NCBI GenBank assembly: GCA_043801585.1 | Contig: JAZDLX010000184.1 | Location: forward strand, 1-64,000 | Length of the DNA stretch: 64,000 bases | Direction of reading: 5' to 3' | From: a bacterium | GTDB lineage: Bacteria; Electryoneota; Electryoneia; Electryoneales; Electryoneaceae | Part shown: positions 46,535 through 64,000 of the stretch, in pieces | How positions within the stretch are numbered: position 1 is the first letter of the stretch | Layout of the letters: every line of letters begins with the position of its first letter | Notes under the pieces: model-generated | The model's database searches: none | What the model was told of the DNA's origin: nothing | Seen by the model: the letters and a program-made list of their open reading frames with translations, nothing else | Position numbers and translations under genes: made by a program

Positions 46535-47570
46535 GTCCCATGGTGCAGGCATTGGCGTCGTCATCGATGGCGTGCCACCGCGCCTGCGTCTCGACCTGGA
46601 GGCCATCCAACTCCAGCTCGACCGACGCCGTCCCGGCCAGAGCAGAGTAACAACATCGCGATCCGAATCGGACCGTGTTGAGGTTCTCTCCGGACTCCAT
46701 GAGGGGGTTACCACCGGTGCGCCTCTAACCCTGTTCGTTCGGAACAGCAACACCCGGCCGGAAGACTACGAAAATCTTCGCAACACCTTCCGCCCCGGGC
46801 ATGCGGATTTCACCTGGTACAAGAAATACGGAGTCCGTGATTATCTCGGAGGCGGACGCTCCTCCGGACGCGAGACCATCGCCCGGGTGGCGGCGGGCGC
46901 GGTGGCGAGGCAGATCCTCGCGGTTCATGGAATTTCCGTTCTCGGATACGTCGTTTCGGTGGGAGACGTCGAAGTTGAATCGTTTGACCCTGCTATCATC
47001 GAATCGAATCCTGTGCGCTGCGCGGACCCTGACGCCGCCGCCCGGATGGAAGCCCTGATTCTTCGCGTGAAGGAAGATGGCGACTCGGTTGGTGGAATCG
47101 TCGAGGTCCGCTGCCAGGGGGTACCTGCCGGACTCGGCGATCCGGTGTTCGACAAACTGGATGCCCTGATTGCCCGGGCAATTCTTTCCATCGGTGCGAC
47201 GAAAGGGATCGAATTTGGATTGGGGTTTGCAATGGCTCGAATGCGCGGCAGCCAGGCTCACGATCCGATCCGTCCAGATGGAGTCGATGGCGACCGGGCG
47301 GGAGGCATTCTCGGCGGTGTCTCAAACGGAGGCGATATCGTTTTCCGTGTTGCAGTGAAACCACCTGCGTCAATTGAACTCGAACAGGATACCGTCACCC
47401 TCGACAATCAACCCCACCGCATCGCCGTACAGGGGCGTCATGACCCTTGCATCGCACCGAGATTGGTTCCTGTTGCCGAGGCGATGACGGCGCTCGTGCT
47501 TGTCGATGTATTGATGAGACAGACGGCACTTCGAGGAGTACTGCCGGAAGATGGTGATAACGATGCTTGA
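46485..47570 (+). CDS. aroC: Chorismate synthase
   Basis: Start at MSSNTFG; GESHG, RRRPGQ, RPGHAD, GGGRSSGRET and GRHDPC motifs. Confidence 0.97.
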   Translation: MSSNTFGNLFRATSFGESHGAGIGVVIDGVPPRLRLDLEAIQLQLDRRRPGQSRVTTSRSESDRVEVLSGLHEGVTTGAPLTLFVRNSNTRPEDYENLRNTFRPGHADFTWYKKYGVRDYLGGGRSSGRETIARVAAGAVARQILAVHGISVLGYVVSVGDVEVESFDPAIIESNPVRCADPDAAARMEALILRVKEDGDSVGGIVEVRCQGVPAGLGDPVFDKLDALIARAILSIGATKGIEFGLGFAMARMRGSQAHDPIRPDGVDGDRAGGILGGVSNGGDIVFRVAVKPPASIELEQDTVTLDNQPHRIAVQGRHDPCIAPRLVPVAEAMTALVLVDVLMRQTALRGVLPEDGDNDA

Positions 47571-48615
47571 TGAACTACGCAACCAGATACGTGAAGTAGA
47601 CGCCTCGATAGCGGAACTGATCGCCAGGCGCCTCGATCTTGCACGCCGTATCGGCGAAGAAAAGGTGAAGCTCGGTCTGCCTGTACGGGATTTCGCAACC
47701 GAAAAACGTGTACTCGAAACGATGGACCGGCACGCCGAAAGACTTGGGATCGACCGTGAAATCCTCGAGGGAGTTGTCTTGCAACTGATTCGGGGATCGG
47801 TTCAACTGCAGAGCCGCAACCGGGTTCCGCTTCACTCGCGTGGCAACCTTCGTGCGGCTGTCATCGGTGGTGATGGCCACATGGGAAAATGGTTCGAGGG
47901 ATTTCTCTCGTCGCGCGGTTATGACGTGATCATTATCGAAAAGGACGATGATCTCCGACTGTCGCTTGAGTCCGATCTGATCGTCGTTTCTGTGCCCCTT
48001 GACAGGACGGGGGAAGTCCTCAGGCGGATCGCCGGCGAAAATCCGCGTGGCATTATCATTGAAGTCGCCAGTCTGAAATCCGATTTCGTGGATCAAATCC
48101 CCGAGTGGATCGAGAGCGGGATGCGTATCGCATGCATCCATCCCATGTTCGGTGCGGAGGCCGATCTGCTGGCGGGTCAGAACCTGATCGTCTGCGAATC
48201 GGGATGCAAAGAGGCGGAGGATGCTGCCGCGGATCTTTTCTCGGATTCGGCGGTCCATGTTGTCCGTATCCCGCTCGCGGATCATGATCGCATCATGGCC
48301 TGGGTACTCAACCTCCCCCACCTGCTGAATCTGCTGGCGGCCGATCTTCTTTCAGCATCGACTGAAGATCATGAACGGCTGCGTGAATTCGGTGGAACAA
48401 CATTCAACCGTCAGCACGCTGTGACAAGTGAGGTGGTCTCGGAGAATCCCGATCTCTACTATCACATCCAGCACATTAACCGTCATCGCGGTGAATTTTT
48501 TAACCATTTCCGCGAGAGTCTTCAGCGTATCATTGGGGTTATCGAACGAAATGACAGGGAAGCGTTTGTGAAACAGATGAACGGATGGAGCCGCTGGTTT
48601 CGAGGGGAACGATGA
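47563..48615 (+). CDS. tyrA: Fused chorismate mutase (AroQ) / prephenate dehydrogenase
   Basis: LDELRNQI.EVD..I..LIARRL.LA..IGEEK..L (CM), then IGGDGHMGKWF, EVASLK, IHPMFG and HDRIMA...LPH (PDH). Confidence 0.9.
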   Translation: MLDELRNQIREVDASIAELIARRLDLARRIGEEKVKLGLPVRDFATEKRVLETMDRHAERLGIDREILEGVVLQLIRGSVQLQSRNRVPLHSRGNLRAAVIGGDGHMGKWFEGFLSSRGYDVIIIEKDDDLRLSLESDLIVVSVPLDRTGEVLRRIAGENPRGIIIEVASLKSDFVDQIPEWIESGMRIACIHPMFGAEADLLAGQNLIVCESGCKEAEDAAADLFSDSAVHVVRIPLADHDRIMAWVLNLPHLLNLLAADLLSASTEDHERLREFGGTTFNRQHAVTSEVVSENPDLYYHIQHINRHRGEFFNHFRESLQRIIGVIERNDREAFVKQMNGWSRWFRGER

Positions 48616-49610
48616 ACCGAATTGAAGGATTCGGCCTGGCGCCCACTACCGCCGCGTTTGTCGCATCCTACGATCAAAATCGCGGGTGGAATCAGGGGAA
48701 ATGGATGGAGCCCGGCGAGCAACTCAAGATTCCTTTGCAAGCCTCGGTTCTGTCCTATGGTCTATCGGTCTTCGAAGGGTTGAAGGCATACAGGACTGTA
48801 AAGGACACCATCCTCCTCTTCCGGGTTCGCGATCATGCAGAACGGTTCCAACGGTCCGCCAAGGCGGTCGGTTTGCCGACTTTTCCCGTTGAGAAATTCG
48901 TTCAGACATGCCGCGACACTGCTTTGCGCAACGCCGCGCATCTGCCACCGGTGGGCAAGGGGTCCTTGTATCTGCGTCCCGTGTTATTTGCGAACGAGGC
49001 GCGACTGGGCATGGGTCTTCCCGCGACAGCTCGCTTTGTTCTCTTCGCGAGTCCGGTGTCGGAATACTTTCAGGGTTCCGAACAGGGTGTCAGCCTGTTG
49101 CTGCTCGACCGTTCCCGTGTCCCGGCTGGTGGCATCGGCTATGCCAAGTGTTCCGGGAATTACGCAGGGACGCTTTTGACAAGGGTTCAGGCGATGCATG
49201 ACGGTTATGATGACGTGCTCTACTGCGATGCCCGGAATCCCGGTACCGTTGCCGAGCTGACCGGGGCGAACATTTTCGCCCGAATCGATGAAACGCTGGT
49301 GGTGACTCCACCAGCGTCCGACCAGATTCTTGCGGGCATTACCCGCGATTCGGTCATTCACCTGATGCGGGACCAGGGAGTGAACGTCGAGGAGCGCCCT
49401 CTGACCATAACCGAACTTACCGCGGCACAGGAATCGTTTTGCACGGGGACCGCATGGGGTGTTGTCGGAGTCAGAGAGTTGCGCCACGGCTCATCATCCA
49501 TTCGCTTTCCCACAATGCAACTTTCCCATCAACTGGTGAAAAAACTGCAAGCCGTCCAAACAGGTGAACGTGCCGATCCATTTGACTGTGAGTTGATTCC
49601 GTTTGAGTGA
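48612..49610 (+). CDS. ilvE: Class IV PLP aminotransferase (IlvE/BCAT-like), probably the aromatic aminotransferase of the operon
   Basis: YGLSVFEGLKAY, LYLRPV, AKCSGNY (PLP Lys), ELTGANIF, ILAGITRDS and GTA motifs. Confidence 0.88.
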   Translation: MNRIEGFGLAPTTAAFVASYDQNRGWNQGKWMEPGEQLKIPLQASVLSYGLSVFEGLKAYRTVKDTILLFRVRDHAERFQRSAKAVGLPTFPVEKFVQTCRDTALRNAAHLPPVGKGSLYLRPVLFANEARLGMGLPATARFVLFASPVSEYFQGSEQGVSLLLLDRSRVPAGGIGYAKCSGNYAGTLLTRVQAMHDGYDDVLYCDARNPGTVAELTGANIFARIDETLVVTPPASDQILAGITRDSVIHLMRDQGVNVEERPLTITELTAAQESFCTGTAWGVVGVRELRHGSSSIRFPTMQLSHQLVKKLQAVQTGERADPFDCELIPFE

Positions 49611-49677: not shown

Positions 49678-51288
49678 TTACTGTTCCGTTGGCAAGTAAG
49701 TATTTGCATCCGTTCGGATATAGCGGAGCAACCGATTGTTCTCCGTGTCGGAAATGTAGACAACACCCTCCGAGGTGGCGACTCCCGTAGGTCCACTGAG
49801 GATCGGCCACAGGACTTTCACCGTGGAATCTGCCGCCACTGAAAGGTCGAACATCGTGTCTTGCTGGGCGATATAGGTTTGCAAAACGGGGGGATTCAGC
49901 AGATCCGAGTACGCAAGATCGAGAGATTGCAGGACGCTGGCGAAGGATTGTGCGGAATCCAGCAAAACCGTAGTAGTCCTTGCGGAAAGAAATCCCACGA
50001 GGTCCGGGTTCAAAACAGCGTCCAACTCGTCTCCCCGTTGCGCCAGGTAATCATCCAGTAACTCGCCGGCATTCAGGTCGATAAATTCCGGTTCGGCGGC
50101 AACCTCACGAAATTTGAAACCATTCGGAAAGAACGCCGTCACCCGATTCTGTCTTTGATCCGCAACGTAGATCAATCCAAGACCACGGGCATCCCGTTCG
50201 CCCACGGCAACCGACATCGGTCTGCTGAAATAATTCAGTTTCAGCAGTTGCGGTTCACCCTCTTCCGTGACCGAAATATCAAAATACCAGTTCGATCCCG
50301 TTCCCGTGACTTTCTGAACTTTGAAGTTGCCTGCTGACTGCGCGAAGAAAATCGAAGTCGAACTTCCACCACCCTGTGTGACGAGACTGGTCGGAGAGTT
50401 TGCCGATCCCCGCCCCTGTCCAGCACCCACAGCAACAGCATGGTGATTACCAAGATATGTATAGAAGACTACTCCGTTATCGAGAACAAGCAAACGCTTG
50501 GGCAGCACCGATATTTCAACGATACGATCGTCCTGTTCATCGGTGAAGTAGATCATATGCGAATTGGCGCCCCCTGCGGCGACATCAGTAAGTTTCGGTT
50601 TTGCTGCCGTTCCGATTGCGTAGGAATGATCTACATAGAAGAGATAAGGATTCGTTACAGATGCCAGTGAATCCGGGTCGGTCGTGGAAGTGTAATCGGC
50701 GACCACATAATTCTGGGCATCGAACATACCAAGCTGCTGATAGAGAGGCGTTGAATTGTCAAGGACTACAGTATCCTCGGTTGCTGGGTTCACAAAGGTG
50801 ACCGTCTGAATCAACGCCTGAATACCTGTCTGGGCGGCATACTGGTTCCAGCAATAGATTTTGTCGGTCCCATTCACCATGAAGAGGTTCAGCTTGGTAT
50901 CCTGACCAATTCCCCTCGGAGCATTCGACGTATCCGTCACCGAAGTGAACAGATTATCCCTGACTGTGGATCCAGTGGTTGTCAATTGAACCACGTGACC
51001 ATTGGTGTTTCCGTCCACCTCGGTAAAATCCACTACATACATAAAACCATCTGGGCCGATTAAAAGATCGGCTGGATTTGTCCATGTGTAGCCGTGGGCT
51101 GCATCCCAATCGGGAGAAAGACGAACGAAACTCGTATCGTTTGCACCGAAGTCCTCAACCTTGTTTTCGATCGCGGTCGGCAACGCGGGGTGATCTCCGC
51201 ATCCCGTCATCATCAGTCCGGTCATCAGCAGAACCGCCAGGCTGATCATCGATGCGTTGGCAAATCGTATGGTATAATGCCGCATCAT
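49678..51288 (-). CDS. Lipoprotein with NHL-like beta-propeller repeats
   Basis: Lipobox MMTGC; repeats PADLLIGPDGFMYVVD, PMSVAVG..IYVADQRQNRV and PTGVATSEGVVYISDTENNRL. Confidence 0.75.
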   Translation of the reverse strand: MMRHYTIRFANASMISLAVLLMTGLMMTGCGDHPALPTAIENKVEDFGANDTSFVRLSPDWDAAHGYTWTNPADLLIGPDGFMYVVDFTEVDGNTNGHVVQLTTTGSTVRDNLFTSVTDTSNAPRGIGQDTKLNLFMVNGTDKIYCWNQYAAQTGIQALIQTVTFVNPATEDTVVLDNSTPLYQQLGMFDAQNYVVADYTSTTDPDSLASVTNPYLFYVDHSYAIGTAAKPKLTDVAAGGANSHMIYFTDEQDDRIVEISVLPKRLLVLDNGVVFYTYLGNHHAVAVGAGQGRGSANSPTSLVTQGGGSSTSIFFAQSAGNFKVQKVTGTGSNWYFDISVTEEGEPQLLKLNYFSRPMSVAVGERDARGLGLIYVADQRQNRVTAFFPNGFKFREVAAEPEFIDLNAGELLDDYLAQRGDELDAVLNPDLVGFLSARTTTVLLDSAQSFASVLQSLDLAYSDLLNPPVLQTYIAQQDTMFDLSVAADSTVKVLWPILSGPTGVATSEGVVYISDTENNRLLRYIRTDANTYLPTEQ

Positions 51289-51302
51289 TGGCTCGGTCGT
51301 CC

Positions 51303-52430
51303 TTAGAAGGAAAATTCCAGGCTCAAACGTGTCACCTGATCCAACAATCCGAATTCCGTATAACTGACGTCCACACTCATCGCCTTTGTACTGAAAGGCA
51401 GTCGTAAACCTGCGCCGACCGTCCAGGGATCCTCATCCGTATTCGCCTTGAGACCGCCGCGAATGTAGAATTGCCCGGCGAATGAATACTCCGCGCCAGT
51501 GACAAAGTTCTCCGAATTGTCTACAGGATGGTTCAACTGGAAGGAAGCAAGCAATCTGTGGGGACCGCTGGCAAACAACGTCATCGCGGCACCCACGCGA
51601 AATTCGGTTGGAGGACTGAATTCCGTGAAACCCGTCTCAACAATGTCACCGTTGGGGTCTGGCGCAAGGAAACTCCCCTTCGGACTGGCATTGGGACCAA
51701 AGTGCATCAACGCCACACCGATTCGCAGATCGCGGTAGCCTGTCCAGTAATAGGTGCCGATATCGAACATCACGTTGTCCATCTGGGTATCGGCAAGGGT
51801 CTCACGAACACCCTTGAGCGTGATCCCCCACGAGAAGTTCTGGGTCATTTCCCAGGCGAACGTTGCGCCGATCTGCACGTCGCCGTAACTGTAATACTCG
51901 CCTGTGCCATCCGGGTGGTATTCCGTGGTGATTTCCTGGTCCGGTGCCTGCAAGCTGATGGCGGACACACCGATCGCACCAATGCTGATCGGCATCACCG
52001 CGCTGACGGCGCTGTAGCTAAGGTCACCAATCCATTTGAAACTGACCAATCCCACGCTGTAACGTCCGCCGGAAAGCCTGTTGATTCCCGTTCTCGGTCC
52101 CTTGACCCCCTCGGCAGGACGCTGGGGATCCACGGTGTAAGCGCCGTTCCAGCGGTTGTAAATCTGCGCGATCCCCCCCGGATTCCAGAAGGAAGCAAAT
52201 GCATCGTTGGCAATCGCTACATAGGCACCGCCGAGTCCTTCGGCACGGGAACCAACCGGAATCTTGAGGAAAGTCATCGCCGAAGTGCCGACACGCTGAT
52301 CACCGAAGTTCGGGAAAAGACTCTGAGCCTGGGCGGACGGTAGCGCCATCACAAGAACCAACAGGGCAACAATACCTGCCAGTATTTTGATGTTCGCAGT
52401 CATTGCGTTTTTCACGTTTCTGCGTCCCAT
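51303..52430 (-). CDS. PorV/PorQ-family outer-membrane protein (T9SS cargo shuttle)
   Basis: FLKIPVGSRAEGLGGAYVA...FWNPGGIA signature; beta-barrel strands; C-terminal Phe. Confidence 0.85.
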   Translation of the reverse strand: MGRRNVKNAMTANIKILAGIVALLVLVMALPSAQAQSLFPNFGDQRVGTSAMTFLKIPVGSRAEGLGGAYVAIANDAFASFWNPGGIAQIYNRWNGAYTVDPQRPAEGVKGPRTGINRLSGGRYSVGLVSFKWIGDLSYSAVSAVMPISIGAIGVSAISLQAPDQEITTEYHPDGTGEYYSYGDVQIGATFAWEMTQNFSWGITLKGVRETLADTQMDNVMFDIGTYYWTGYRDLRIGVALMHFGPNASPKGSFLAPDPNGDIVETGFTEFSPPTEFRVGAAMTLFASGPHRLLASFQLNHPVDNSENFVTGAEYSFAGQFYIRGGLKANTDEDPWTVGAGLRLPFSTKAMSVDVSYTEFGLLDQVTRLSLEFSF

Positions 52431-52432
52431 GC

Positions 52433-55195
52433 TCAGAACCTCACCGAAGTGCCGAAAAATACCTGTCGAGGTGCTTTGTACCGGCCGGGATCGACGAGAA
52501 TGAAGCCCTGCGCGTTTTCCCATGACACCGGTGCCGGATCACCTCTCTCATAGGGATGACCGGTAAGTGCATTGATCTGGTTCGGCACTTTGAAATCAAA
52601 TGCGTTCAACGCCTCAATGAAGAACCGCACACTGGTCCTTTGGGCAAGAGGTATCTCTTTGTACAGCTTGATATCCACGGTATTCCACCACGGCGCCAGC
52701 TCGCTGTACCGCTCACCCGATTCCTGATAGTCCTGGCCTTCGTTGGTGAGTACGATCGGGGTATAACGTTTGCCTGTCGAAAGATCCCACCGCACGCTGC
52801 CACCCCAGTTCGTCGGCCAATTAATGCCGAACCAGTGTGGAGGGCTGTTTGGAGGAACCCTCAACCAGACCGTCAGGCCAAGCCGGATGGGGGTATCCCA
52901 GGCGAGGTATTCCTCACCCAGTGTCTTCTCCTGGATGTGGGTATCCGCAGCAGCCTGAATCGCCGCCGCAGCGCTTGAGCTCTTCCCCGTCGCTATCTGG
53001 TACGCGAAGTCCACATTCCCCGACCAGTAGGTTCCCTGCCGCGCCCGGAAACGCATCTCCAGGCCGCGTACACGCGCATAGTCCTGGTTGAAATATTGAT
53101 AGTACGAGATGTTGCCGAGACGCGGGTTCGAGCTTGTCACCTGGAACGAAGTGGCGTAATCGTAAAGGTCCTTGTAAAACGCGGAGATCTCGAGCACCTG
53201 GTTGCCCGTGAACCGGTGCTTGATACCCATCTCGTAGGACACGGTTGTCTGGGGATTCAGGTTCGGATTTCCGAAAAGCTGATAGGTGCTCGGGCTGTAG
53301 GATCTCAGCTTGCTGAAGACGTATGCGTACTTGGGCCGCTGGCTGAAATGCCCGTAGTTGAAAAAGAGCACATCCGAATCCGTCACCGGGTGGCTGACGC
53401 CGAGGCGGGGGCTCAAGTGGGATTTGATGCGACGACCAAGAATCTCGCTCGTCTCATCCATGTAAAGCTGACGCGCCGCATCGGTCAGAGTGATCACATT
53501 CGGATCGGCGATCGCGTCCTCCACGTACTTCCCCGGATTCCACCAATCGAAGCGGAGGCCGACGTTCGCGATCATCCCCTTGAACTCAATCTTGTCCTGG
53601 GCGTAGAACGTGCCCGCTTCCGACATCGCGGAATACATATCATAATCACCGCCGAGGTCGGTGGATGCAACCCATGGATCATGGACTGTCAAGGATTGCA
53701 GTTTTGTCTGTTCGTACTCGATACCGATCTTCACCAGATTCCGGCTGTTCGCCTGACTGGTGAGTTTCCACTTCAACTGAAAGGTGTCGTTGTAGTGATC
53801 GTGGTAGGTATCACCGTTTCCGACATCCCACAGGCCGTCACCCGTTTTTGTGAGGATTTCGCCCAGATTGCCGACATCGTAGAAAACCGGAAGGTTGTCA
53901 ACCGGCTGGGTGTAATCGGTGTAATACTTCCCCAGCGGCGCACTTGTCACTCTGTTGTAGAAATTGCCCAGGGTCAATTCATAAAAGGTCTTTCTCGACA
54001 GAGTATGGGTGATGTTCAAACCGTGCTGAATGCCTTCACGCGAGATTGTATTGTACTGGGAGAGAATATCCATGTACTCCAGCGGGAAATATTTTTTATC
54101 CTCCACCACCGCGTCGAAGTATCCCTGATTGATCTGAAGACTCCTGCCGAAGTTATATGAAATTTTGAACGTAGGAATTGGTTTGTAGGTGTACTTCGCC
54201 ATGATTGAATAATTGTTTTCTTCGCGAAGTGCAAAGGGATCCCATTGGTTTCGTATCGGAACGAGTTCGCCTGAAGCATTCGGGAGATAAGTGTCCGAGA
54301 CATACCCGTATCCATTCAAGAAAATCGAAGACTTACCGGGTACGTCCAGCCCGATCGATTTCAGAGCACCGCTGGTGATCGGGTCGGGACCGCCAAGCGA
54401 AAATTCGACATTGTTCGTATTCTGGTGCCGGGAGGGCCAACCAGAGAAATTGTCGGTTTTCGTCTGAAAACTCCCTTCCCACTCGTCGCCGCCTTCCTTG
54501 GTCTCCACGTTGACGAGGCCCGACATCGCCTGGCCGTATTCCGCGTTGAAACCGCCCGTGATCACTTCGATTTCCTTGACGGCTTCCGCGGAGATGTAAA
54601 CGCCCAACCCCTGTCCGCTGATGGGATCCTTAACAGACAAGTTGTCGATGATGTACATGTTTTCGTCGGCCCGGCCTCCGCGAATGTGTACATCGCTGTT
54701 GTCCTTGACCACTCCCACCTGCTGGCCGATGACGTCGTTCAGCCCTTCGACGACGAGTTCGTTGATCTCCTTGCTGTTTATCGTGCGCGAGGTGGCTGTC
54801 TGATCCACATCGAGCAAAGGTCGTTCGCCGATTATGACAATCTCCTGACCCAGCGAGAGCACGGTGGGCTCGAGGGCGATGTCCACGGTCAGGATTTCAT
54901 CACCCTCGATCCGCAGATCGGTGTTAAGGTACAATTTATACCCGATGGAACTGGCCTGAAGATCGTAGCTTCCCGGGTTGACAGCCATGATGACATAGTT
55001 GCCGTCAAGGTCCGTTGAAGCGCCCTTGTAGGTGCCCTTCAGAATGATGTTCACGCCAACCAGCGGTTCGCCTGTCTGGGCGTTGGTTATCGAGCCCATG
55101 ATTCGGCCGGCGAAAGCTGGGATCGCCGCAACCATCAATATGGAAGCCAACAGCAGAACAATTGCGGCGCGTGCAGTCACAATTCTCCTATTCAT
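52433..55195 (-). CDS. TonB-dependent receptor with N-terminal carboxypeptidase-regulatory-like domain
   Basis: TGEPLVGVNI..GASTDLDGNY; plug HIRGGRADE..TGGFNAEYGQAMSGLVN..TKEG; SPRLGVSHP, GNPNLNP; ends PRQVFFGTSVRF. Confidence 0.93.
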   Translation of the reverse strand: MNRRIVTARAAIVLLLASILMVAAIPAFAGRIMGSITNAQTGEPLVGVNIILKGTYKGASTDLDGNYVIMAVNPGSYDLQASSIGYKLYLNTDLRIEGDEILTVDIALEPTVLSLGQEIVIIGERPLLDVDQTATSRTINSKEINELVVEGLNDVIGQQVGVVKDNSDVHIRGGRADENMYIIDNLSVKDPISGQGLGVYISAEAVKEIEVITGGFNAEYGQAMSGLVNVETKEGGDEWEGSFQTKTDNFSGWPSRHQNTNNVEFSLGGPDPITSGALKSIGLDVPGKSSIFLNGYGYVSDTYLPNASGELVPIRNQWDPFALREENNYSIMAKYTYKPIPTFKISYNFGRSLQINQGYFDAVVEDKKYFPLEYMDILSQYNTISREGIQHGLNITHTLSRKTFYELTLGNFYNRVTSAPLGKYYTDYTQPVDNLPVFYDVGNLGEILTKTGDGLWDVGNGDTYHDHYNDTFQLKWKLTSQANSRNLVKIGIEYEQTKLQSLTVHDPWVASTDLGGDYDMYSAMSEAGTFYAQDKIEFKGMIANVGLRFDWWNPGKYVEDAIADPNVITLTDAARQLYMDETSEILGRRIKSHLSPRLGVSHPVTDSDVLFFNYGHFSQRPKYAYVFSKLRSYSPSTYQLFGNPNLNPQTTVSYEMGIKHRFTGNQVLEISAFYKDLYDYATSFQVTSSNPRLGNISYYQYFNQDYARVRGLEMRFRARQGTYWSGNVDFAYQIATGKSSSAAAAIQAAADTHIQEKTLGEEYLAWDTPIRLGLTVWLRVPPNSPPHWFGINWPTNWGGSVRWDLSTGKRYTPIVLTNEGQDYQESGERYSELAPWWNTVDIKLYKEIPLAQRTSVRFFIEALNAFDFKVPNQINALTGHPYERGDPAPVSWENAQGFILVDPGRYKAPRQVFFGTSVRF

Positions 55196-56699
55196 CGAAC
55201 ACCACCTGGATGAATCTGCCTACAATCGCGGGGTCTTTGATCGTCTCCAAAGGTACCGTTAACAGCGTGTACGATTTGTCAACCCTGCGAACGCAGACAA
55301 TCGGTGTCCCGCTGTACTGCGGAGGACTTTTCACGCTGGGATCAAGGCGGTAGAGAATTTCGATCCCGGGTTTTTCAGCGAGGCCAATCCAGACGCGACT
55401 TACCAATTCGTCCAGCATCATCGTCGGCAGCCCGGTTCCTTCTTCAGGCACAAAGTACACGGTGTCCGCTGCTGATGTGTAGACACGGGGCCGACTCAAA
55501 TCATAGTTGATTGCGTACGTGCTGTCCGACAAATCGAGAACCATCCCGGTGTCCACGGTCATCGTCGTTAAAAGCATTCGGTTGCCGGGGGTATTGATAA
55601 ACCCGTACATGGAGTTGAAAGCCTGCCGCAGCAGAGGTGTGCCATAGAAGGAATACCAGAGTACCCGCTTGAATTTGAGCAGCGTTTCCGAAATATCGAC
55701 GGCGACATAGGGCAATTCAGTGCCCAGTTCCCAGGTGCTGTACACATCGCCTTCCTCGCCACCGTACAGGGAATCGAAAATGGCGCGGTAGAAATCCAGA
55801 TGCACGTTCCCTTCATCGAGATAGTAGTCGTCCACAATCAGATAATCGCCTGCCGGTTGTTTCACCACCCACTTCAACGGATCGCTGGCAACATGAGAAT
55901 CCGGGAAATGAATCGTCGGAGACTGGAATCCGGCAAGGTCTTCCACTTTCAGCCAGAAGTTGTGTTCTCCCGTTTCAAGATCACGAAGTGTTACGGTATT
56001 GTAGATCGCGTCCATCTCCTGCCAGGCGGTATCGCCCGGAAGCGGATCGAGGGCATAGTAAACTTTTTCAATGGTCTGGTAGCCATCGGGGTCCGTAGCA
56101 TCCCAGGCAAACGACCGAACATTGAAGGTTTTGTAAGTCTTGCCAGCATAGGATACCGGATTCGACGCAAGACGGAACGACACGTCCGGCCGGCTGTTGA
56201 AGACAGGAAAGGTGATCGTCGCAGGATCCGGATCGATCGCGCCTTCGTTGTCAACCGCCAGGACCTGGAATGTGAATTCCGCGGTCGGGGTGCGAATCGG
56301 GAGAGTGAACTCCTTTTGCTCAAGCGTTGTCGAATTCCAGGTGGAATCGTTCACCTGCTGCCAAGAGTCGTCATACCATTGAGTGTCGACGACGATCCCG
56401 AGAGTATCAGTGACAAGCAATCCCCAGCGATACTCGTAGCTGACGATCCATCCATCAGAATCTTCAGCCCACCAATGCATCACCTTGTTACTTGAACTTG
56501 CAACCGGTAATACTCCCGGATCCGGTACAATCGACAAGTAGGTCTGCGGAGGACGATTATCCGAGCTTCCCAGTACATTCCCGGTCCGTCCATCCGCCCC
56601 AACCGGGTCGAGATTCTGACAGCCGAGCTGAACCAGCGCAATCAATGCCAAGGTCAGCACCGCTGCTAAAACCACCAAACCCGTCTTGCGTGCACTCAT
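55188..56699 (-). CDS. Lipoprotein with two Y_Y_Y/FN3-like beta-sandwich modules
   Basis: Lipobox VQLGC; repeated W..D.DG..YEY/YY...F.V.A/V.D..G modules; SD GGAGGA upstream of ATG 56699. Confidence 0.65.
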   Translation of the reverse strand: MSARKTGLVVLAAVLTLALIALVQLGCQNLDPVGADGRTGNVLGSSDNRPPQTYLSIVPDPGVLPVASSSNKVMHWWAEDSDGWIVSYEYRWGLLVTDTLGIVVDTQWYDDSWQQVNDSTWNSTTLEQKEFTLPIRTPTAEFTFQVLAVDNEGAIDPDPATITFPVFNSRPDVSFRLASNPVSYAGKTYKTFNVRSFAWDATDPDGYQTIEKVYYALDPLPGDTAWQEMDAIYNTVTLRDLETGEHNFWLKVEDLAGFQSPTIHFPDSHVASDPLKWVVKQPAGDYLIVDDYYLDEGNVHLDFYRAIFDSLYGGEEGDVYSTWELGTELPYVAVDISETLLKFKRVLWYSFYGTPLLRQAFNSMYGFINTPGNRMLLTTMTVDTGMVLDLSDSTYAINYDLSRPRVYTSAADTVYFVPEEGTGLPTMMLDELVSRVWIGLAEKPGIEILYRLDPSVKSPPQYSGTPIVCVRRVDKSYTLLTVPLETIKDPAIVGRFIQVVFDE

Positions 56700-56753
56700 C
56701 TCCAACAGTCCTCCGAACCGGACAGAACGACTTTCCGATCTTCAAAAGAATCC

Positions 56754-56793
56754 CCTCCCCACGCATCAATCGTGATGTTGATGCGTGGGGAGG
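56754..56793 (-). terminator. 16-bp stem-loop after the OB-fold protein gene (partial terminator or stability hairpin)
   Basis: CCTCCCCACGCATCAA-8 nt-TTGATGCGTGGGGAGG; followed by GGATTCTTTT on the minus strand. Confidence 0.65.
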
Positions 56794-56824
56794 TTGAGAA
56801 TCGAATCAATGTCAGATGCTTCTG

Positions 56825-59731
56825 TTACTTGATCAGAACCATCTTCTGCATCTTGTGGAAATCAGCCGCATCGAAGCGCAGGAAGTAAACGCCCGAAGCC
56901 ACCGGCATATTCGAATCGTTCACACCGTGCCACATCACCGTATGCTGTCCAGCGACCATCGGCTGATCAATCAGCGTCCGGACCTTCTGGCCCAGCATGT
57001 TGTAAACAATCACCTTGACAGCAGCATTCTTGGGAAGCTGGAAGGCGACCGTGGTGGATGGGTTGAACGGGTTCGGATAGACGGGATACAGCGCGAAGAC
57101 CTTCGGCAGACCGGCCTCTGCGACAGATGCTTGCGGTCCCAGGAGGCTCTCCACATCGTACCAGAGACGTGGCTCGAGCTTCCAGGTGCCATAGCTGTAC
57201 AACCAGATGCCCTGGATCCACGCCGGGCTGGTGTTCGATGTACCACCCGCGAGACCGCTGAACCAGGCCTTGATCGTCGAATTGTTGGCGGCATAGTTGA
57301 TCATGTCATCATCGACAAGGAACCGGTTGCCGCCGGCATCCTCAAAGGTCCAGTCGTACGAGTTCTTCTGCACGAAGGTCGGGTTCAGGATCTTCACAGC
57401 CTGGCTCTCATAGGGCTCAGGTGTGCCGGTCAGATCCGTAACGGAAACTTCGTGGAAGGTCAATGCATTGCCGGAGCTGTTGACTGTGAAGTTCGTGCCA
57501 ACGCTCTTCAGACGGGTGTTGTTGACGAACTTGCTGCCACCCGTGATTTCGTTGACGACACCGGTGACGGTAATCGCATCACCCGCTTCAACGGCACTTC
57601 CAACAGCCATGTCAGTGCTGTTGATGTGGACCAGAATTGAGTTCCATGAAGGATCCGTACCTGCTTGGAGATAGTACGCGCAACCTTCCGTATAGCCGTA
57701 CTGGAAAGCAATGTCATTGCTGTCGATAACGACACCCGTTACGGTGACGCTGTAACCTTCGTAACGGCTGCTTCCGCCGGCATACGGTGTCCACTGAAGC
57801 TGTGCAATCGTCAACGGGCTGGCTGACACGTGATACCCGTTGAGGAACTTGCTGGTGTCACTCGGCTCAAGGGTTGTAACGACCGATAGGTCTTCAAAGG
57901 TGTTGAATGCCTCTGAGAAGTACCAGACATCGGCACCCTCGGACTGCGCCGGGATTATGGCCACGAAGGAGTCGCCTTCAACGTTGGTCATCTTGACGCC
58001 TGTAAAGTCGCCGGTTTCACCGACACGGTACCAGACGAACGCGCTGTCAACCTGCACATCGTCAATGATGTTGTACGCGATACCAACCGCATCCGAAGGA
58101 GTCGGAGCAGCGATGTTGCGGCCACCACTGACGAAGAGCGGCGGAGCCTCGCCGAGAACGATGTCGATCAATGGAAACTTGGGAGCAACCTTGTAGGTCC
58201 AGTGCGATCCATCGACATCACCAAGAGAACCGAAGTGATCATAGACCCAGCCGACGACACTGTCGATGATGGTGTTTACTGGCGGTTGACCAAAGGTATC
58301 CCAGTTTGACGCTTCCGGTGAACCGGTAAAGTCGGAGTCGTCGTCGATACCGAATCCGGGTGTGGCGTCCGGAGTAGGATCATCCACAACGAATTTCATG
58401 TTGTCGAGACCCGGGGTATTGTTCACAACCTGGACACCCTTCAGGTAGACAAACGCCGTGCCCCACTTCTCGATTTTACGGCCGTCACGGACATCGGCAA
58501 CAGTCACCTGAACTGGTGCGGGGAGCGGGTGATCGAACGTTGGGACTTCGATCGGCTCCGTGATGAACAGCTCGGTCATGTTGCCTTCACCGGTGATGTA
58601 CTCGGAGATGTACCCGGTGACAATCACCTCATCGCCATCAAAGAGATACGGAAATGCCGTGGAGTCAGGATCATAGGAGAGCACCGAACTCCAGGGCTGC
58701 TCGACGGGATCGGTATCGAGAGCATATACCGCATCGGACATGATGAACTTCACGCCAGCACCGGCGTAGTTGAGGCCTGTGGAACTGGTCACAACACCAC
58801 GCACGGTGACTGTATCCTGTCTGCCGGTAACTGTTCCATCAAAGAATGCGTAACGTGCGTTCGATGAGTAGGACTGATCCAGCATGTAGGTGTTGCCGCT
58901 TCCATCCGTCTGGATCTTCATGTCGTACGGACGGACCTGCTGGAACCACGAGAACTGGGTATACCAGCCGTTGTCAGGATCTACGGCAACCTTCAGGTCA
59001 TGGCTGATTTCGGGAAGGATGTGGTACCCGTAAGAGACGTTGACAACACCGCGAACGTAATCGAAGGGCTGGTCCAGCAATCGCTTGTGGAAATAGCCGT
59101 ACGTGGTGTTTTGCGGGTTGTCAATCAGCACAGTGCTGTCGCCGTCAGTGACAGACCATTCACCGTATCCGGCATCAGCATTGTCACATACCACATCATT
59201 CACTTGGACCAGGACACCTTCCCACTGCTCAGCGCCTGTACGGTTGTAAAACGGGGTCAGGTCCGCTGCAGGAACAACCGTGTAAGCGCACGCAGCAGGC
59301 AGATCAGTCCAGTCCACAACGTCCGAGAGAACAGTGACATCCGTTGCGGGTGTCATCGGCGAAATTTCAGTGATGTAGTTGCCGTTCGTGTCACTGCCGG
59401 ATTTGTACTCCGTCACCTTGCCTCGAACACTGACCTTCGTGCCGAAAGCAAAATCAAAACCCGCAGCGCTTTTGTAGATGTAGACGCCATGCCAGGCGCC
59501 TGCGGAGTCTGCCATCCAGAAACCGCGTCCATCGGGATTCATGGAGAGTGGTTCAAACGTAACCCAACCCTCTACAGTTACGGTGTCGCCCATCAGGGTA
59601 CTTCGATCTTCAGTCACTGGGTCGGCAACGAACTGTACCGTTTTGATGGGTGTAATACCCGGCCATTCCGTAGCGTACGTCGCGGAAACAGCCAACAGCA
59701 TCACAACCATCAGAATGATAACTTTACGCAT
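56825..59731 (-). CDS. T9SS-secreted protein with three OB-fold-like repeat units, an Ig-like domain and a C-terminal secretion tail
   Basis: Signal peptide; three units TV.V.G.V...W..V/I...G..V.V.G.V.EY/E plus E.WEG.LV-like segments; C-terminal YPNPFNPST..VASGVYF..KMVLIK. Confidence 0.8.
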   Translation of the reverse strand: MRKVIILMVVMLLAVSATYATEWPGITPIKTVQFVADPVTEDRSTLMGDTVTVEGWVTFEPLSMNPDGRGFWMADSAGAWHGVYIYKSAAGFDFAFGTKVSVRGKVTEYKSGSDTNGNYITEISPMTPATDVTVLSDVVDWTDLPAACAYTVVPAADLTPFYNRTGAEQWEGVLVQVNDVVCDNADAGYGEWSVTDGDSTVLIDNPQNTTYGYFHKRLLDQPFDYVRGVVNVSYGYHILPEISHDLKVAVDPDNGWYTQFSWFQQVRPYDMKIQTDGSGNTYMLDQSYSSNARYAFFDGTVTGRQDTVTVRGVVTSSTGLNYAGAGVKFIMSDAVYALDTDPVEQPWSSVLSYDPDSTAFPYLFDGDEVIVTGYISEYITGEGNMTELFITEPIEVPTFDHPLPAPVQVTVADVRDGRKIEKWGTAFVYLKGVQVVNNTPGLDNMKFVVDDPTPDATPGFGIDDDSDFTGSPEASNWDTFGQPPVNTIIDSVVGWVYDHFGSLGDVDGSHWTYKVAPKFPLIDIVLGEAPPLFVSGGRNIAAPTPSDAVGIAYNIIDDVQVDSAFVWYRVGETGDFTGVKMTNVEGDSFVAIIPAQSEGADVWYFSEAFNTFEDLSVVTTLEPSDTSKFLNGYHVSASPLTIAQLQWTPYAGGSSRYEGYSVTVTGVVIDSNDIAFQYGYTEGCAYYLQAGTDPSWNSILVHINSTDMAVGSAVEAGDAITVTGVVNEITGGSKFVNNTRLKSVGTNFTVNSSGNALTFHEVSVTDLTGTPEPYESQAVKILNPTFVQKNSYDWTFEDAGGNRFLVDDDMINYAANNSTIKAWFSGLAGGTSNTSPAWIQGIWLYSYGTWKLEPRLWYDVESLLGPQASVAEAGLPKVFALYPVYPNPFNPSTTVAFQLPKNAAVKVIVYNMLGQKVRTLIDQPMVAGQHTVMWHGVNDSNMPVASGVYFLRFDAADFHKMQKMVLIK

Positions 59732-59809
59732 GTTTCTTTATACCTCCCTGTTGGTGAGGATTGTATCTCTCACTTGTCCGTTACACCTGTCCCGGTTGCA
59801 CCGGGCTCT

Positions 59810-62293
59810 TTATTTGATCACCAGAAAACGTCCCATCTTCTTGTCTCCGGAATCGGTGTCCTTGACGACGTAGATGTAGAGTCCCGTTGCGATTTCCTGT
59901 CCTTTCTCCGTCAGCAGATCCCAGGCGTGTTCACCACCGGCGAATGCGCTTCTTTCACCGGTGGAAGACGATCCTCCGATTCGCGCGACATCCTGAGCGC
60001 TATAGGTGGCGGCATCATGTTCGAACCGGTCGATTCGTTCGCCGGCGGTATTGAAGATAGTCACCTCGCAATGCTGGGGGAGATAACGGAACCAGATCAA
60101 CCGCTCATCCTGATTCAAACCGTCCCATGCAGCGCGTCCCCGATATGGATTCGGGTACACGCTGATACGTTGATCGTTGCTGGCGACCGGCCGTGTGCCG
60201 GGATAGGCGAATGTACGGTTTGCGGTTCTATTGGACTCAAGACTCTGCAGGTTGTTCGCCGGGTCGCCCCGGTCATATGCCGTCACCGAGTAATAGAGCT
60301 CACGCGGCCAGCCGTTTTTGACGCCGTAATTGACCCATCGGTAGGTCGGTTCAAATCCAAACTGTGATTGAATTGCGCTTCTAATCGAATCCTCCTGTTC
60401 AACCGTCAACTCCCCGCTGGCGACGAGGGAGTCGAGATGGATGGAGGCCATACCGAGGTCATACCCAACGTGGGTGTTGTCATCATCCGTGGGATCGACG
60501 TCATAATTGACATCCCAATCCGCCAGCAGGGTCCACTCGCCGGTTACACCTTCACTGGTGGTCTTCGGAGAGGAATATACCCGATAGCCTTCAAAGTCGA
60601 TCTTGTTGCTGATCGGATCGACGGCAAATTCCGGAGCATTGTTCCAGTAGAGTGTTACCTGACGGTCCGCGGGCACGATGGCGAGTGATGGAGCAGGAGG
60701 TGCACCTGGCAAAATGTAGCGGGTAATTTTTCCATCACCGTCTTTGTCCTCACCCGGATCCAGGATGCCGTTCCCGTTGCGATCTTCGCCATCATAGGCG
60801 ATCTGTGCCCATTCCGCGTTCAGATACAGGTTACTCCGGCGTTCCGCATTGTCATCACCCGTTCCGTTCCAGAGTCCTGCTACAATCGCATAAGCCACCT
60901 TGTACCGTTCGCCGGGAGCAAGGTTAGGCATCGGACCGGTGGAGAGGAAAAGCATCCATGACTGTTGATAATCGCTTGTCGTCGGAAGACGGTTGCCGTC
61001 GAGACCGACGCGCATCACGTTATAGCGATCTTCCTCGGTCTGAGGCATTCCATATTCATCAGGGAATCGCGACCCACCCCACGTCCACTGGTGAAAATAG
61101 GCATTCCAAGTATTCGGTAGAGCTGCAGCATTGACCGGTTCAGCGCCCAATACCTTCACCCCGAGATAACTCTGAGCCCACCCGGCATCCCCGTCAAAAT
61201 CGAACTGCATCGCCAGACGCTTTGAATTGCTGTAAGCGTTCATGTTGTCATACCAGTTCCAACGCCCACCGGGACCACCCTGACTGCTGTAATAATTCGT
61301 GTAATTCATATTACCAACGGAACCATCCACCCAGACGCCGAAATAGGGATCGGTGATTGCTTTCCCCGTCCAGATCGTGTCGCCATCGGCAAATTCCCGG
61401 ACAACTCCTGCGCCATAATTCACTGTCTCGCCGCCAGCTCCCGCGATCCTCATGCCCGTGGGAATGTTCGTCACCGTGTAGTTGAGGATCGTAAAGGCAT
61501 CCGCGAACGGATCGTTCCAGGAGTAGGCTTCGAGATAGACGTGGATACCGAGAGGTTGATGGTACTTGACTGCAACACCAGTCCCCGGAACAATGAGATT
61601 GGTGTCGGTAAAAGCGGTGATCAGGTCCTGGTGACTGACGGCGTTGGGATCGTAAACGGTGGCGTAGGCGGCGTAGGGGTTTGAGGGTGAGGCATCGACG
61701 ATGGAGCTTCGGGTGACGACGGAATCCCAAGAGGTCGTTCCAAAGTCCCACTCCCCGTTGACCAACGGGGCGTCGATCGCACCACCAAACGTGATGTACG
61801 GGTCTATTGGATCGTCTGCGTGCGTCAGGTCAAACCTGCGGTCGATTTCTGCCAGATGCCGGAAAACAGGTGTATCCCTGATCGTCCGTTGTGCCGAGGA
61901 GGTGAACTCCCACCCACCTTCATCGGGCGCAAACACACCATCGTAAACAGCAGTGGTAACGTGTACTTGTCCATCCTTGACACCACCGATCCAGATGCCA
62001 GCATAACTGAAATGTTCGATCTGTTCTTTCGCGATTGTCGTGCGGATTTTGTACATGCAGGAGGGTTGGTCGGGGGTGTTGAATCCCTGGCCAAGAACAC
62101 CAAAGTTTGTGATCGTCAAGCCGATGTTTCCGACGCTGGTATTATGCCAGTAATCATCACTGGCCGTCTTCCGTAACGCTTTCCCCTGATCAGCGGCGAT
62201 GGTCACATTCGCTGCCAGAATCAGCCCAGCGCCAAAAAACGCCAGTGCAGTACGAACTGGGCTACGAAAGCGATGGATAGGTAAGTGTCTCAC
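59810..62293 (-). CDS. Large exported protein with variant T9SS-type C-terminal domain
   Basis: Signal peptide; GNIGLTITNFG; DxDGDG calcium-type loops; FN3-like DFEGYRVY..YSVTAYD; C-terminal VYPNPY..AWDLLT..IATGLYIYVV..GRFLVIK. Confidence 0.75.
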   Translation of the reverse strand: MRHLPIHRFRSPVRTALAFFGAGLILAANVTIAADQGKALRKTASDDYWHNTSVGNIGLTITNFGVLGQGFNTPDQPSCMYKIRTTIAKEQIEHFSYAGIWIGGVKDGQVHVTTAVYDGVFAPDEGGWEFTSSAQRTIRDTPVFRHLAEIDRRFDLTHADDPIDPYITFGGAIDAPLVNGEWDFGTTSWDSVVTRSSIVDASPSNPYAAYATVYDPNAVSHQDLITAFTDTNLIVPGTGVAVKYHQPLGIHVYLEAYSWNDPFADAFTILNYTVTNIPTGMRIAGAGGETVNYGAGVVREFADGDTIWTGKAITDPYFGVWVDGSVGNMNYTNYYSSQGGPGGRWNWYDNMNAYSNSKRLAMQFDFDGDAGWAQSYLGVKVLGAEPVNAAALPNTWNAYFHQWTWGGSRFPDEYGMPQTEEDRYNVMRVGLDGNRLPTTSDYQQSWMLFLSTGPMPNLAPGERYKVAYAIVAGLWNGTGDDNAERRSNLYLNAEWAQIAYDGEDRNGNGILDPGEDKDGDGKITRYILPGAPPAPSLAIVPADRQVTLYWNNAPEFAVDPISNKIDFEGYRVYSSPKTTSEGVTGEWTLLADWDVNYDVDPTDDDNTHVGYDLGMASIHLDSLVASGELTVEQEDSIRSAIQSQFGFEPTYRWVNYGVKNGWPRELYYSVTAYDRGDPANNLQSLESNRTANRTFAYPGTRPVASNDQRISVYPNPYRGRAAWDGLNQDERLIWFRYLPQHCEVTIFNTAGERIDRFEHDAATYSAQDVARIGGSSSTGERSAFAGGEHAWDLLTEKGQEIATGLYIYVVKDTDSGDKKMGRFLVIK

Positions 62294-62629
62294 GGTCGTA
62301 GCAGGTCCTCACGTTGCTTCCTGAACGGATGCCAATGATTCGACCAGATCGACTTCAGGAGTACAAACCCCTCTGCAGCCGACCTTGCGTCAAGCTGCCG
62401 AACTCTCGTTAAGCTCTCATGAGGAAAAGGTTTAGGTCTCCCGAGAAGCTAACGAATCTTCGGAACCGTGGGAACTGGATCATGTTCCACATTTCACGGC
62501 TTCGGAGAAGATAGGGGCCTTAATCAGACAGCTCCAAGGTCGAGGAGAGTCGTTTTTTAAGGTAGGTATTCCAAACCCTAAGCCCCTGTCTCTGAGAGAT
62601 TTGGCCCCATTTTTAATAACATCACAAGG

Positions 62630-63937
62630 TTATCGAATCAATGTCACACGTCGAAGATCCACACTCCCGCCGCTGACAGTTCTCAACAGATAGACACCGC
62701 TGGAAAGTTTGTCCGCCGGGAGGGTCAAATGATGAGCTCCGGCGGTGAGATACCCCGCCTGCATCTCCCAGACCTGACGTCCGAGGAGATTGTACAGCGC
62801 AAGATGGACCTGGCCGGATTGCCTCAGGTTCAGACTCACACTGGCTGTGCTGTTGAAGGGATTCGGATAGACTGAAACGATCATGAAATGTGAAGGGAGG
62901 TTCTGCACGTAATCGTCCCGCACACCTGAGATCCCATCCACCGCAATGTCCATGACGACCGGGAGGTGATCCGAGGCATAATAGAGGGCGTCAGCCACTT
63001 CTCGGCGAACTGCAAGGTTTTCCGGATAGTTGATATTTAAGTTAAAGTGCTGCCCATCATTACCGAAAGCGTGGTAGCTTTCCGGCAAGTAATCAAGGCC
63101 GGTGCTGTCGAAGAATTCCGGTGACGCGAGGATGAAGTCGAAACGGTCGTCAAGGCCCCCTGTCGCACCTTCATCATAGAGACCTGTTGAAGAGGTGCGT
63201 GTGCTTTGGGTATGAACATCCGCAAACGCACTGTTGTTGGTCCACGATCCCACCCGATTGATAGGATCTCGGAAAAGATCGGTTGACGTTGCGGCTTGCC
63301 AGGCTGTCCCGCTTGCACGATAGAGATTAAAGTCGCCACAGAAAATTAGATTGCTCCCCACCAGAGATTTGTTGTTGATCTGTGTGATCATTGCGTTGAT
63401 CTGCTGCGTCCTCGTCGACTCATCTGCACTATTATTACTTGCTTTCAGGTGCGTGATGAACACGTACATCGTATCAAACAAGTCGTCGTGCTGGAAATTC
63501 ACCTGAAATTGTACGATATCGCGAATCGGTGCGGTGATCAGGTAGATCGGCCCCAGGGAAATCCCGCGATCCGTACGATAGTAAAGCTGAACATCATAGG
63601 AGGATGTCGGTGACAGGAGTGACTTTGCCCACTTGCCGGGGGCGATAACGTCGAGGACGTTGCTAAGGAACCGAGTTGATCCCGTACCACTCCAAACTTC
63701 TTCCACAGAAATGATGTCTGGATCAATCGTGGAGATGACCGTCCGATAATAGGGCTCACGTTCATCCTCGTGATGATCGGCAACGCCGTCATAAGTGTAG
63801 TTCAAGATGTTCCACGCCATAAAGCGGAGCGTTTCCGTCTGTGCCTGAACAGAGTGGATAAAGGTGAGGGAAACCAGCGTGATCAGCAAGCCGCCTGAGA
63901 TCCAACTCTTCAGAAACCGTTTCGTTGCACCGTGCAT
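62630..63937 (-). CDS. Secreted exonuclease/endonuclease/phosphatase (DNase I-like fold) with T9SS C-terminal tail
   Basis: Signal peptide; MAWNIL, VEE, THLKA, GDFN, RFDFIL and SDHLPV (EEP catalytic set); C-terminal YPNPFN..LSSGVYLL. Confidence 0.88.
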   Translation of the reverse strand: MHGATKRFLKSWISGGLLITLVSLTFIHSVQAQTETLRFMAWNILNYTYDGVADHHEDEREPYYRTVISTIDPDIISVEEVWSGTGSTRFLSNVLDVIAPGKWAKSLLSPTSSYDVQLYYRTDRGISLGPIYLITAPIRDIVQFQVNFQHDDLFDTMYVFITHLKASNNSADESTRTQQINAMITQINNKSLVGSNLIFCGDFNLYRASGTAWQAATSTDLFRDPINRVGSWTNNSAFADVHTQSTRTSSTGLYDEGATGGLDDRFDFILASPEFFDSTGLDYLPESYHAFGNDGQHFNLNINYPENLAVRREVADALYYASDHLPVVMDIAVDGISGVRDDYVQNLPSHFMIVSVYPNPFNSTASVSLNLRQSGQVHLALYNLLGRQVWEMQAGYLTAGAHHLTLPADKLSSGVYLLRTVSGGSVDLRRVTLIR

Positions 63938-64000
63938 GGTACGTTCTCCCAAGGCTCTTTCGTACGCACTTCAGTATGGCAAAGATCATGCAGCATGATA

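Follow-up and report, generated by a model that had tools for sequence, protein, structure and literature searches.

A conserved six-gene outer-membrane operon of FCB-group bacteria and its possible role in the uptake of extracellular nucleic acids

What does a TonB-dependent receptor import when its gene cluster holds no SusD, no glycoside hydrolase and no peptidase? The question is raised by a locus at positions 49678-63952 (minus strand) of a 64,000-nucleotide stretch of DNA, hereafter the window, from a bacterium of the family Electryoneaceae (phylum Electryoneota; GenBank assembly GCA_043801585.1, contig JAZDLX010000184.1, positions 1 to 64,000). An initial annotation had described it as seven co-oriented genes forming a candidate nucleic-acid utilisation locus. 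The seven long open reading frames (ORFs) were all found, in the same orientation and order; the first ORF reaches 63952, the 63937 given previously being a second, ATG start. Six of the seven genes form a conserved operon, whose architecture is real, widespread and apparently undescribed, and which belongs to a kind of system described only recently. On balance we favour the reading that these six core genes constitute an outer-membrane operon that captures fragments of extracellular DNA or RNA and imports them as food, while exchangeable phosphoesterases are predicted to do the cutting.

Gene content and conservation of the operon

In order of transcription, the locus comprises:

62630..63952, minus strand: EEP-superfamily phosphoesterase with a signal peptide and a type A tail of the type IX secretion system (T9SS); accessory gene, predicted nuclease (Pfam PF03372, PF18962)
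59810..62293, minus strand: cargo of 827 amino acids (aa), a non-catalytic beta-supersandwich with EF-hand-like acidic motifs, an Fn3-like domain and an atypical C-terminal domain (structure model)
56825..59731, minus strand: 968-aa surface protein with three OB-OB pairs, an Ig domain and a T9SS tail of type A; putative capture protein for nucleic acids, here the OB protein (structure model, profiles)
56754..56793, minus strand: intergenic 16-bp hairpin (T-rich tail) separating the OB and lipoprotein genes
55188..56705, minus strand: 505-aa lipoprotein without a known family, which marks the operon in single copy (Cys29, no family match)
52433..55195, minus strand: TonB-dependent receptor with an N-terminal carboxypeptidase-regulatory-like domain, plug and barrel (Pfam)
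51303..52523, minus strand: small beta-barrel of the PorV/PorQ family, real start probably near 52403 (NF033709)
49678..51288, minus strand: NHL-repeat lipoprotein, the last gene of the operon (PF01436, E 1.9e-7)

Scans of the window's proteins against Pfam and NCBIfam bear out the labels previously given to the EEP protein with its T9SS tail, the TonB receptor, the PorV/PorQ-family barrel and the NHL protein, and agree that none of the seven belongs to a SusD family (E 0.05) or carries a glycoside hydrolase or peptidase catalytic domain. The EEP and OB proteins are T9SS cargo, scoring above the cut-off of TIGR04183 in a genome that encodes the translocon protein SprA (contig C204). The last four genes overlap or are closely spaced, the lipoprotein gene and the receptor start sharing 8 bp.

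The operon core, consisting of cargo, OB protein, lipoprotein, TonB receptor, PorV-family barrel and NHL lipoprotein, occurs in six groups of the Fibrobacterota-Chlorobiota-Bacteroidota (FCB) assemblage, mostly in uncultured bacteria, and its named homologues come from FCB-group bacteria. Our locus set combined 100 regions around matches to a lipoprotein profile, chosen for long contigs, with 22 from other searches; five were dropped (L046, a duplicate; L047, truncated; L030, an orphan OB gene; L192 and L193, orphan lipoproteins), leaving 117. All six genes are contiguous in 79 of these, in the order cargo-OB-lipoprotein-receptor-PorV-NHL. In most of the remainder a gene has been inserted, the contig ends or an ORF is mis-called; four (L153, L191, L195 and L209) are rearranged or incomplete. 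The NHL gene follows the PorV gene in nearly all loci. A scan of genome contigs returned 78 loci dominated by the T9SS tail motif, only 5 of which are the operon.

The lipoprotein profile (18 rows, including sequences from the groups searched; thresholds 1e-8 or 1e-20) matches 105 of 151 Marinisomatota genomes, 61 of 101 from the class of a Balneola record, 32 of 81 from the phylum of a KSB1 record, 32 of 61 from the class of a Melioribacteraceae record and 25 of 51 Calditrichota, with rarely more than one match per genome. Groups are named after those records, and the two classes are, we presume, Rhodothermia and Ignavibacteria. Cys29 of this lipoprotein is unchanged in 18 of 18 aligned sequences; no match was found in Pfam or NCBIfam, and no paralogue in the window's genome. 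The OB protein was detected in 23 of 79 genomes of the window's phylum and in 13 of 15 of its family, some weak matches in other families not being the operon. The operon's genes lie in pieces in L157, L158 and L132, possibly through assembly errors, and L203-L206 carry two extra genes between those for the OB protein and the lipoprotein, encoding a thermolysin-family T9SS protein and a small lipoprotein.

Of the 79 contiguous loci, 75 have downstream of the OB gene a hairpin that is more stable than shuffled sequences by 5 kcal/mol or more (median -23.8 kcal/mol), whereas such hairpins follow the cargo gene in 13, the lipoprotein gene in 4, the receptor gene in 14 and the PorV gene in 9, part of this contrast reflecting the coding sequence that lies immediately behind the later genes. 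The hairpin after the OB gene has a T-rich tail in 36 of the 79. The hairpin is likely an internal terminator or an mRNA stabiliser, and the genes upstream of it would be expressed above the four downstream; since it follows the OB gene, the OB protein is probably made in excess. Promoter and terminator counts overall were not above those of shuffles.

Phosphoesterases beside the operon

Non-core ORFs within 3.5 kb of the operon (626 ORFs) were grouped into 294 clusters, representatives of which were scanned except for about 70 housekeeping- or fragment-like clusters; some positives were assigned via their cluster, the own scan of L197 giving no match at 1e-8. The controls were 20 paralogous PorV-family loci from five genomes; in each genome the top match and the orthologue were excluded and four high-scoring loci taken from the rest. 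A phosphoesterase lies beside 60 of the 117 operon loci and beside 1 of the 20 controls (Fisher p 5e-5 by the strict count; 0.014 by a generous one in which PAP2, HD and Mut7-C raise the controls to 4/20). The excess persists without the two richest groups (28/80 vs 1/20, p 0.006) and in genome-matched loci (3/5 vs 1/20, p 0.016), all of these p values overstating the significance because kin loci are not independent. By hand count, the positives comprise 12 of 16 loci in the window's own phylum, 15 of 40 in Marinisomatota, 20 of 21 in Rhodothermia, 5 of 18 in KSB1, 6 of 11 in Ignavibacteria and 2 of 10 in Calditrichota, with L048 negative (0/1).

These enzymes belong to about ten unrelated families (two EEP types, PhoA, NPP, PLD-like, endonuclease I, 5'-nucleotidase, ComEC-like metallo-beta-lactamase (MBL), metallophosphoesterase and GDPD) and vary by lineage: PhoA is encoded within the operon in nine loci from the window's family, and NPP, present in 14 loci, accompanies it in Balneola relatives. 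The 20-kb surroundings of the controls hold glycosidases (GH2, 3, 9, 13, 16, 18 and 130), peptidases and one acid phosphatase, and no secreted nuclease was found in them at E 1e-8, a threshold stricter than that used for part of the test set. BLAST of the controls with EEP, PhoA, MBL and lamin-tail queries found nothing, and none of 14 paralogous loci in the window's genome, on contigs that are often short, has a match to any of 14 phosphoesterase or lamin-tail queries within 15 kb.

The window's EEP protein is a phosphoesterase and likely a nuclease. It matches PF18962 at E 1e-8 and PF03372 at E 4e-4, below the cut-off that its orthologues exceed. Residues N48, E85, H168, D207, N209, D272, D328 and H329, which we take to be the EEP catalytic set (N, E, H, GDxN, D and the SDH motif), are identical in all 14 aligned orthologues. 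Where EEP members match a named enzyme family, it is a nuclease family. Marinisomatota orthologues carry an additional lamin-tail domain. Neither the EEP protein (13 bits) nor the OB protein (37 bits) reaches the cut-off of 300 of the ExeM/NucH model NF033681, and a single-sequence PDB search with the EEP protein returned nothing under E 0.1. The initial annotation had treated this enzyme as a nuclease integral to the locus: the EEP assignment holds, nuclease activity is predicted, and core membership falls, given the patchy presence across loci and genomes. In the window 336 bp separate the gene from the downstream cargo gene. Its orthologues are found next to the operon in five groups, variably as to side and strand, and the gene is an exchangeable, optional add-on.

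Other genes were also noted around the operon. Phosphate transport (PstS, Na/Pi) or purine synthesis genes occur within a few kb of L048, L184, L145, L146, L148, L150-L152, L157 and L158, and genes for a helix-hairpin-helix protein and a 5'-nucleotidase-like protein lie upstream of the operon in L142 and L154; transformation in Riemerella also requires a helix-hairpin-helix protein.

The OB protein and the receptor-cargo-PorV triad

The model of the OB protein (pLDDT 87.6), together with sub-profiles and internal repeats, gives the layout A-B-A-B-Ig-A-B-tail: three OB-OB pairs at about residues 22-255, 256-528 and 639-862, making six predicted barrels, with an Ig domain at 529-638 and a T9SS/FlgD tail (Pfam/NCBIfam). 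What had been read as a cargo with three OB folds thus keeps its folds and its tail, the three single folds giving way to three pairs plus an Ig domain. The modelled domains match OB folds of the AspRS anticodon domain, MCM, SSB and RPA (Z 8.9-11), matches that speak to fold, not function. Residues 54-179 match the ExeM model (E 2.4e-9), and in the accessible part of PMC6085458 the two-OB region of ExeM is described as crucial for ExeM activity. Among 51 aligned family members, 29 match DUF5689 (best E 4.5e-9) and 33 match PF01336, while the OB profiles match 0 of the 20 control loci. In longer homologues OB pairs are fused to lamin-tail domains, and genes adjoining the operon join these OB domains to PLD-like catalytic domains (L160, L208). 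When catalytic fusions of the first OB pair were sought, 12 proteins came up, none listed with a nuclease domain, which is weak evidence. An MFS transporter (L030:1007-2416, L037:2-676), presumably GlpT-like by its motif, adjoins an OB gene around which the remaining operon genes are missing, accompanied in L030 by a HAD hydrolase.

The receptor exceeds the cut-offs of PF00593, PF07715 and PF13715; it reaches 51 bits against the SusC/RagA model TIGR04056 (cut-off 368), through its N-terminal part only, and so is not of the SusC type. In a quick tree, 22 operon receptors form one side of a branch with 100% SH-aLRT, opposite 14 of the 19 control receptors. L176-L178, L180, L183 and L048 have another, distinct TonB-type receptor beside the operon (PF25183 in L176). 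The small barrel belongs to the PorV/PorQ family (NF033709, 163 bits, cut-off 90) and is not the canonical T9SS PorV (NF033710, 49 bits, cut-off 250).

Residues 53-528 of the cargo model (pLDDT 71) match the N-terminal beta-sandwich domains of GH116/GH15/GH94-type enzymes (Z 15-16, rmsd 3-4 Å, 220-260 residues aligned). Identity as a glycoside hydrolase was rejected, the match covering the non-catalytic beta-sandwich only and the model having no catalytic barrel. The cargo tail has no match to the type A T9SS model. Whole-protein Foldseek gave mostly length-driven Ig/Fn3 matches, and the ESM Atlas returned only unnamed clusters for cargo and lipoprotein. The cargo is a candidate SusD-like lid that the PorV-family barrel may hold.

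The SusD-less combination of receptor, cargo and PorV noticed in the window is real, though not confined to this locus. Of the 20 control loci, 19 combine a receptor, a cargo-like gene and PorV, the cargo paralogues lying between the receptor and PorV genes, and PorV-family matches number 7-25 per genome. Paralogous triads (L223-L242; contigs C72, C181, C128, C143, C32 and C74 of the window's genome, G000) are flanked by glycosidases, LacI regulators or peptidases. TonB receptor, cargo-like gene and PorV-family gene thus look like a general module, a substitute for SusC/D. We propose more tentatively that non-Bacteroidia FCB bacteria use a third polymer-uptake machine, in which TonB receptor, beta-supersandwich cargo and dedicated PorV-family barrel replace SusC/SusD, in many substrate-specific copies per genome; the present operon would be its ancient nucleic-acid version and a main route of extracellular DNA/RNA recycling in SAR406/Marinisomatota, KSB1, Calditrichota, Ignavibacteria and Rhodothermia.

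Regarding the surroundings of the locus, the contig runs on to 81,682 bp, and the suggestion that the locus might continue past the right edge of the window was rejected. Beyond the EEP gene come a small cold-shock-protein-like gene (about 64190-64400) and then a molybdenum-hydroxylase cluster (labels recognised from sequence, without a family scan), so the locus ends at the EEP gene. The latter cluster (64848-81378, same strand) presumably encodes a selenium-dependent xanthine dehydrogenase and purine catabolism, again by labels recognised from sequence. A purine-catabolism-like cluster also starts beside the locus in a same-genus genome (L025) and was not seen beside the other loci. On the other side, plus-strand genes at 43409-49610, which we take from their sequence to belong to aromatic amino-acid pathways, converge on the end of the operon.

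Proposed function, rival explanations and related systems

Gene context and fold point to nucleic acid as the probable substrate. In the mechanism that we envisage, the T9SS would export the OB protein, the cargo and the EEP protein; the OB protein, probably in excess, would bind nucleic acid through aromatic and metal-bridged contacts, and free nucleases would cut it. The PorV-family barrel would hold the cargo by its atypical tail beside the TonB receptor, in the place of SusD/DdbD, so that oligonucleotides or nucleotides could pass the receptor and periplasmic phosphatases could release phosphate and nucleosides.

Several observations weigh against this proposal. No phosphoesterase lies near 57 of the 117 loci, and only 2 of 10 Calditrichota and 5 of 18 KSB1 loci are positive; in L203-L206 the operon itself contains a thermolysin gene, ten loci have a C69 peptidase gene ahead of the operon, and a GH97 enzyme lies near L153. 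PhoA, NPP, GDPD and PLD also act on phosphoesters other than nucleic acids. The window's own OB protein matches neither DUF5689 nor PF01336, has an isoelectric point of 4.3 and contains more acidic than basic residues in every domain. As for the EEP protein, the nearest solved relatives of its profile are nocturnin and TDP2, not DNases, and include some phosphatases; nuclease family models match only 5 of 14 members (ExeM 5/14, MnuA 5/14, exonuclease III 2/14), and the window's own member is far below their cut-offs. The enzyme was found in no more than 34 of 151 Marinisomatota genomes; 26 of these have the operon as well, and in 10 of the 26 the two lie within about 20 kb of each other, contig breaks hiding some. 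The link between homologous loci and nucleases that the initial annotation had anticipated is therefore borne out in part: the excess of phosphoesterases and the overlap of the OB family with DUF5689/DdbD speak for it, the loci without an enzyme and the peptidases in some loci against it.

Among other explanations, we regard as unlikely a broad scavenging of organic phosphate, in which nucleic acid would be just one source besides nucleotides, phospholipid head groups and sugar phosphates. General phosphoesterases have been recruited (the nine PhoA and 14 NPP loci, GDPD in three, PF04185 in L209), and PstS or Na/Pi transporter genes lie near L048, L184, L145, L146, L148 and L150. However, scavenging leaves unexplained the OB pairs and the fusions of both OB and EEP domains to lamin tails, such fusions being typical of ExeM-like nucleases, and neither the window stretch nor seven loci yielded a known riboswitch or any other Rfam match. 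Less probable still is an outer-membrane DNA entry for natural transformation, like that of Riemerella RA0C_RS04915/04920. The operon is mostly single copy, no dedicated regulator was seen beside it, the window's genome encodes ComEC, and ComEC-like MBL and helix-hairpin-helix genes flank L039, L040, L142 and L154. Riemerella transformation requires a DUF5689 protein and a receptor-like barrel (PMC8459023). Yet ComEC is also present in 10 of 14 control genomes, a secretin encoded in the window's genome might serve a pilus-based route, and PhoA, NPP and 5'-nucleotidase neighbours fit feeding better.

We give least weight to the idea that the operon imports another substrate, such as peptides or envelope fragments, or is structural, its phosphoesterase neighbours having been inherited by a few clades. 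It would accommodate the thermolysin inside four loci, the peptidases beside others, the acidity of the OB protein and the kinship of many positives (20 of 21 loci in one class), but it sits poorly with about ten unrelated enzyme families on differing sides of the operon and with an excess that outlasts both the removal of the two richest groups and genome matching.

The consumers of extracellular DNA and RNA in seawater and sediments, and their means, are poorly known. If the proposed uptake of nucleic acids is correct, a mostly single-copy operon that 40-70% of the genomes sampled from five FCB groups carry would provide a marker gene set for DNA/RNA use, type IX secretion would be tied directly to TonB import through a dedicated PorV-family barrel, and SusD-less utilisation loci would become recognisable in phyla where SusC/D-based searches miss them. 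The trait is testable in cultured Rhodothermia, Ignavibacteria and Calditrichota.

Neither the six-gene operon nor the receptor-cargo-PorV triad is described in the literature searched, which did not extend to subscription papers and supplements; the operon is likewise absent from the accessible parts of PMC5317091, PMC8630151 and PMC11285876. The earlier impression that the arrangement was uncharacterised accordingly stands for the operon, but PUL-like DNA utilisation (PUL, polysaccharide utilisation locus) has already been published as ddbABCDEF. The Rhodothermus xylan locus, a receptor followed by three hypothetical proteins in the accessible text of PMC6987092, may be an unrecognised triad.

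Like SusC/SusD loci, the operon combines a receptor with surface binding proteins, and related loci carry substrate-specific hydrolases, the paralogous triads having glycosidases or peptidases; unlike them, it has no SusD and a receptor far under the SusC cut-off, with a PorV-family barrel and T9SS cargo instead. T9SS employs a PorV shuttle and dedicated barrel-cargo pairs of the PorP/SprF type. These pairs resemble the present system in that a PorV/PorQ-family barrel is encoded with a cargo having an atypical C-terminal domain, whereas here the pair is linked with a TonB receptor and has multiplied, with 7-25 matches in each genome. Compared with Shewanella ExeM, as far as PMC6085458 could be consulted, lamin-tail, OB-OB and EEP domains all occur in or beside operon homologues, but ExeM is a single polypeptide, and the OB pairs and the EEP domain here belong to different proteins linked with an importer. 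RA0C_RS04915/RA0C_RS04920 of Riemerella anatipestifer similarly join a receptor-like barrel bearing a carboxypeptidase-regulatory-like domain to a DUF5689 protein; they form a two-gene pair in Flavobacteriaceae, and the accessible part of PMC8459023 describes no PorV, cargo or NHL lipoprotein there. Closest in working is ddbABCDEF of Bacteroides thetaiotaomicron (Sharan et al.; bioRxiv 10.1101/2025.03.18.642099 = PMC12478041), in which, from the portion available, the receptor, its DUF5689-family partner DdbD and nucleases are needed for DNA depletion. Both systems have a PUL-like layout without SusD and a TonB receptor, and the DUF5689-type OB protein and secreted nucleases of ddbABCDEF would have counterparts in an OB protein whose family matches DUF5689 in part and in the phosphoesterases beside about half of the loci. 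In contrast to ddbABCDEF, the OB protein of the operon is a T9SS cargo with three OB pairs and not the receptor's adjacent partner, a lipoprotein gene and the hairpin separating the two genes; the core adds a PorV-family barrel, a beta-supersandwich cargo and two unrelated lipoproteins, and its enzymes are optional and exchangeable. By analogy, the operon would work like ddbABCDEF and yet, judged by gene adjacency, is not a member of it.

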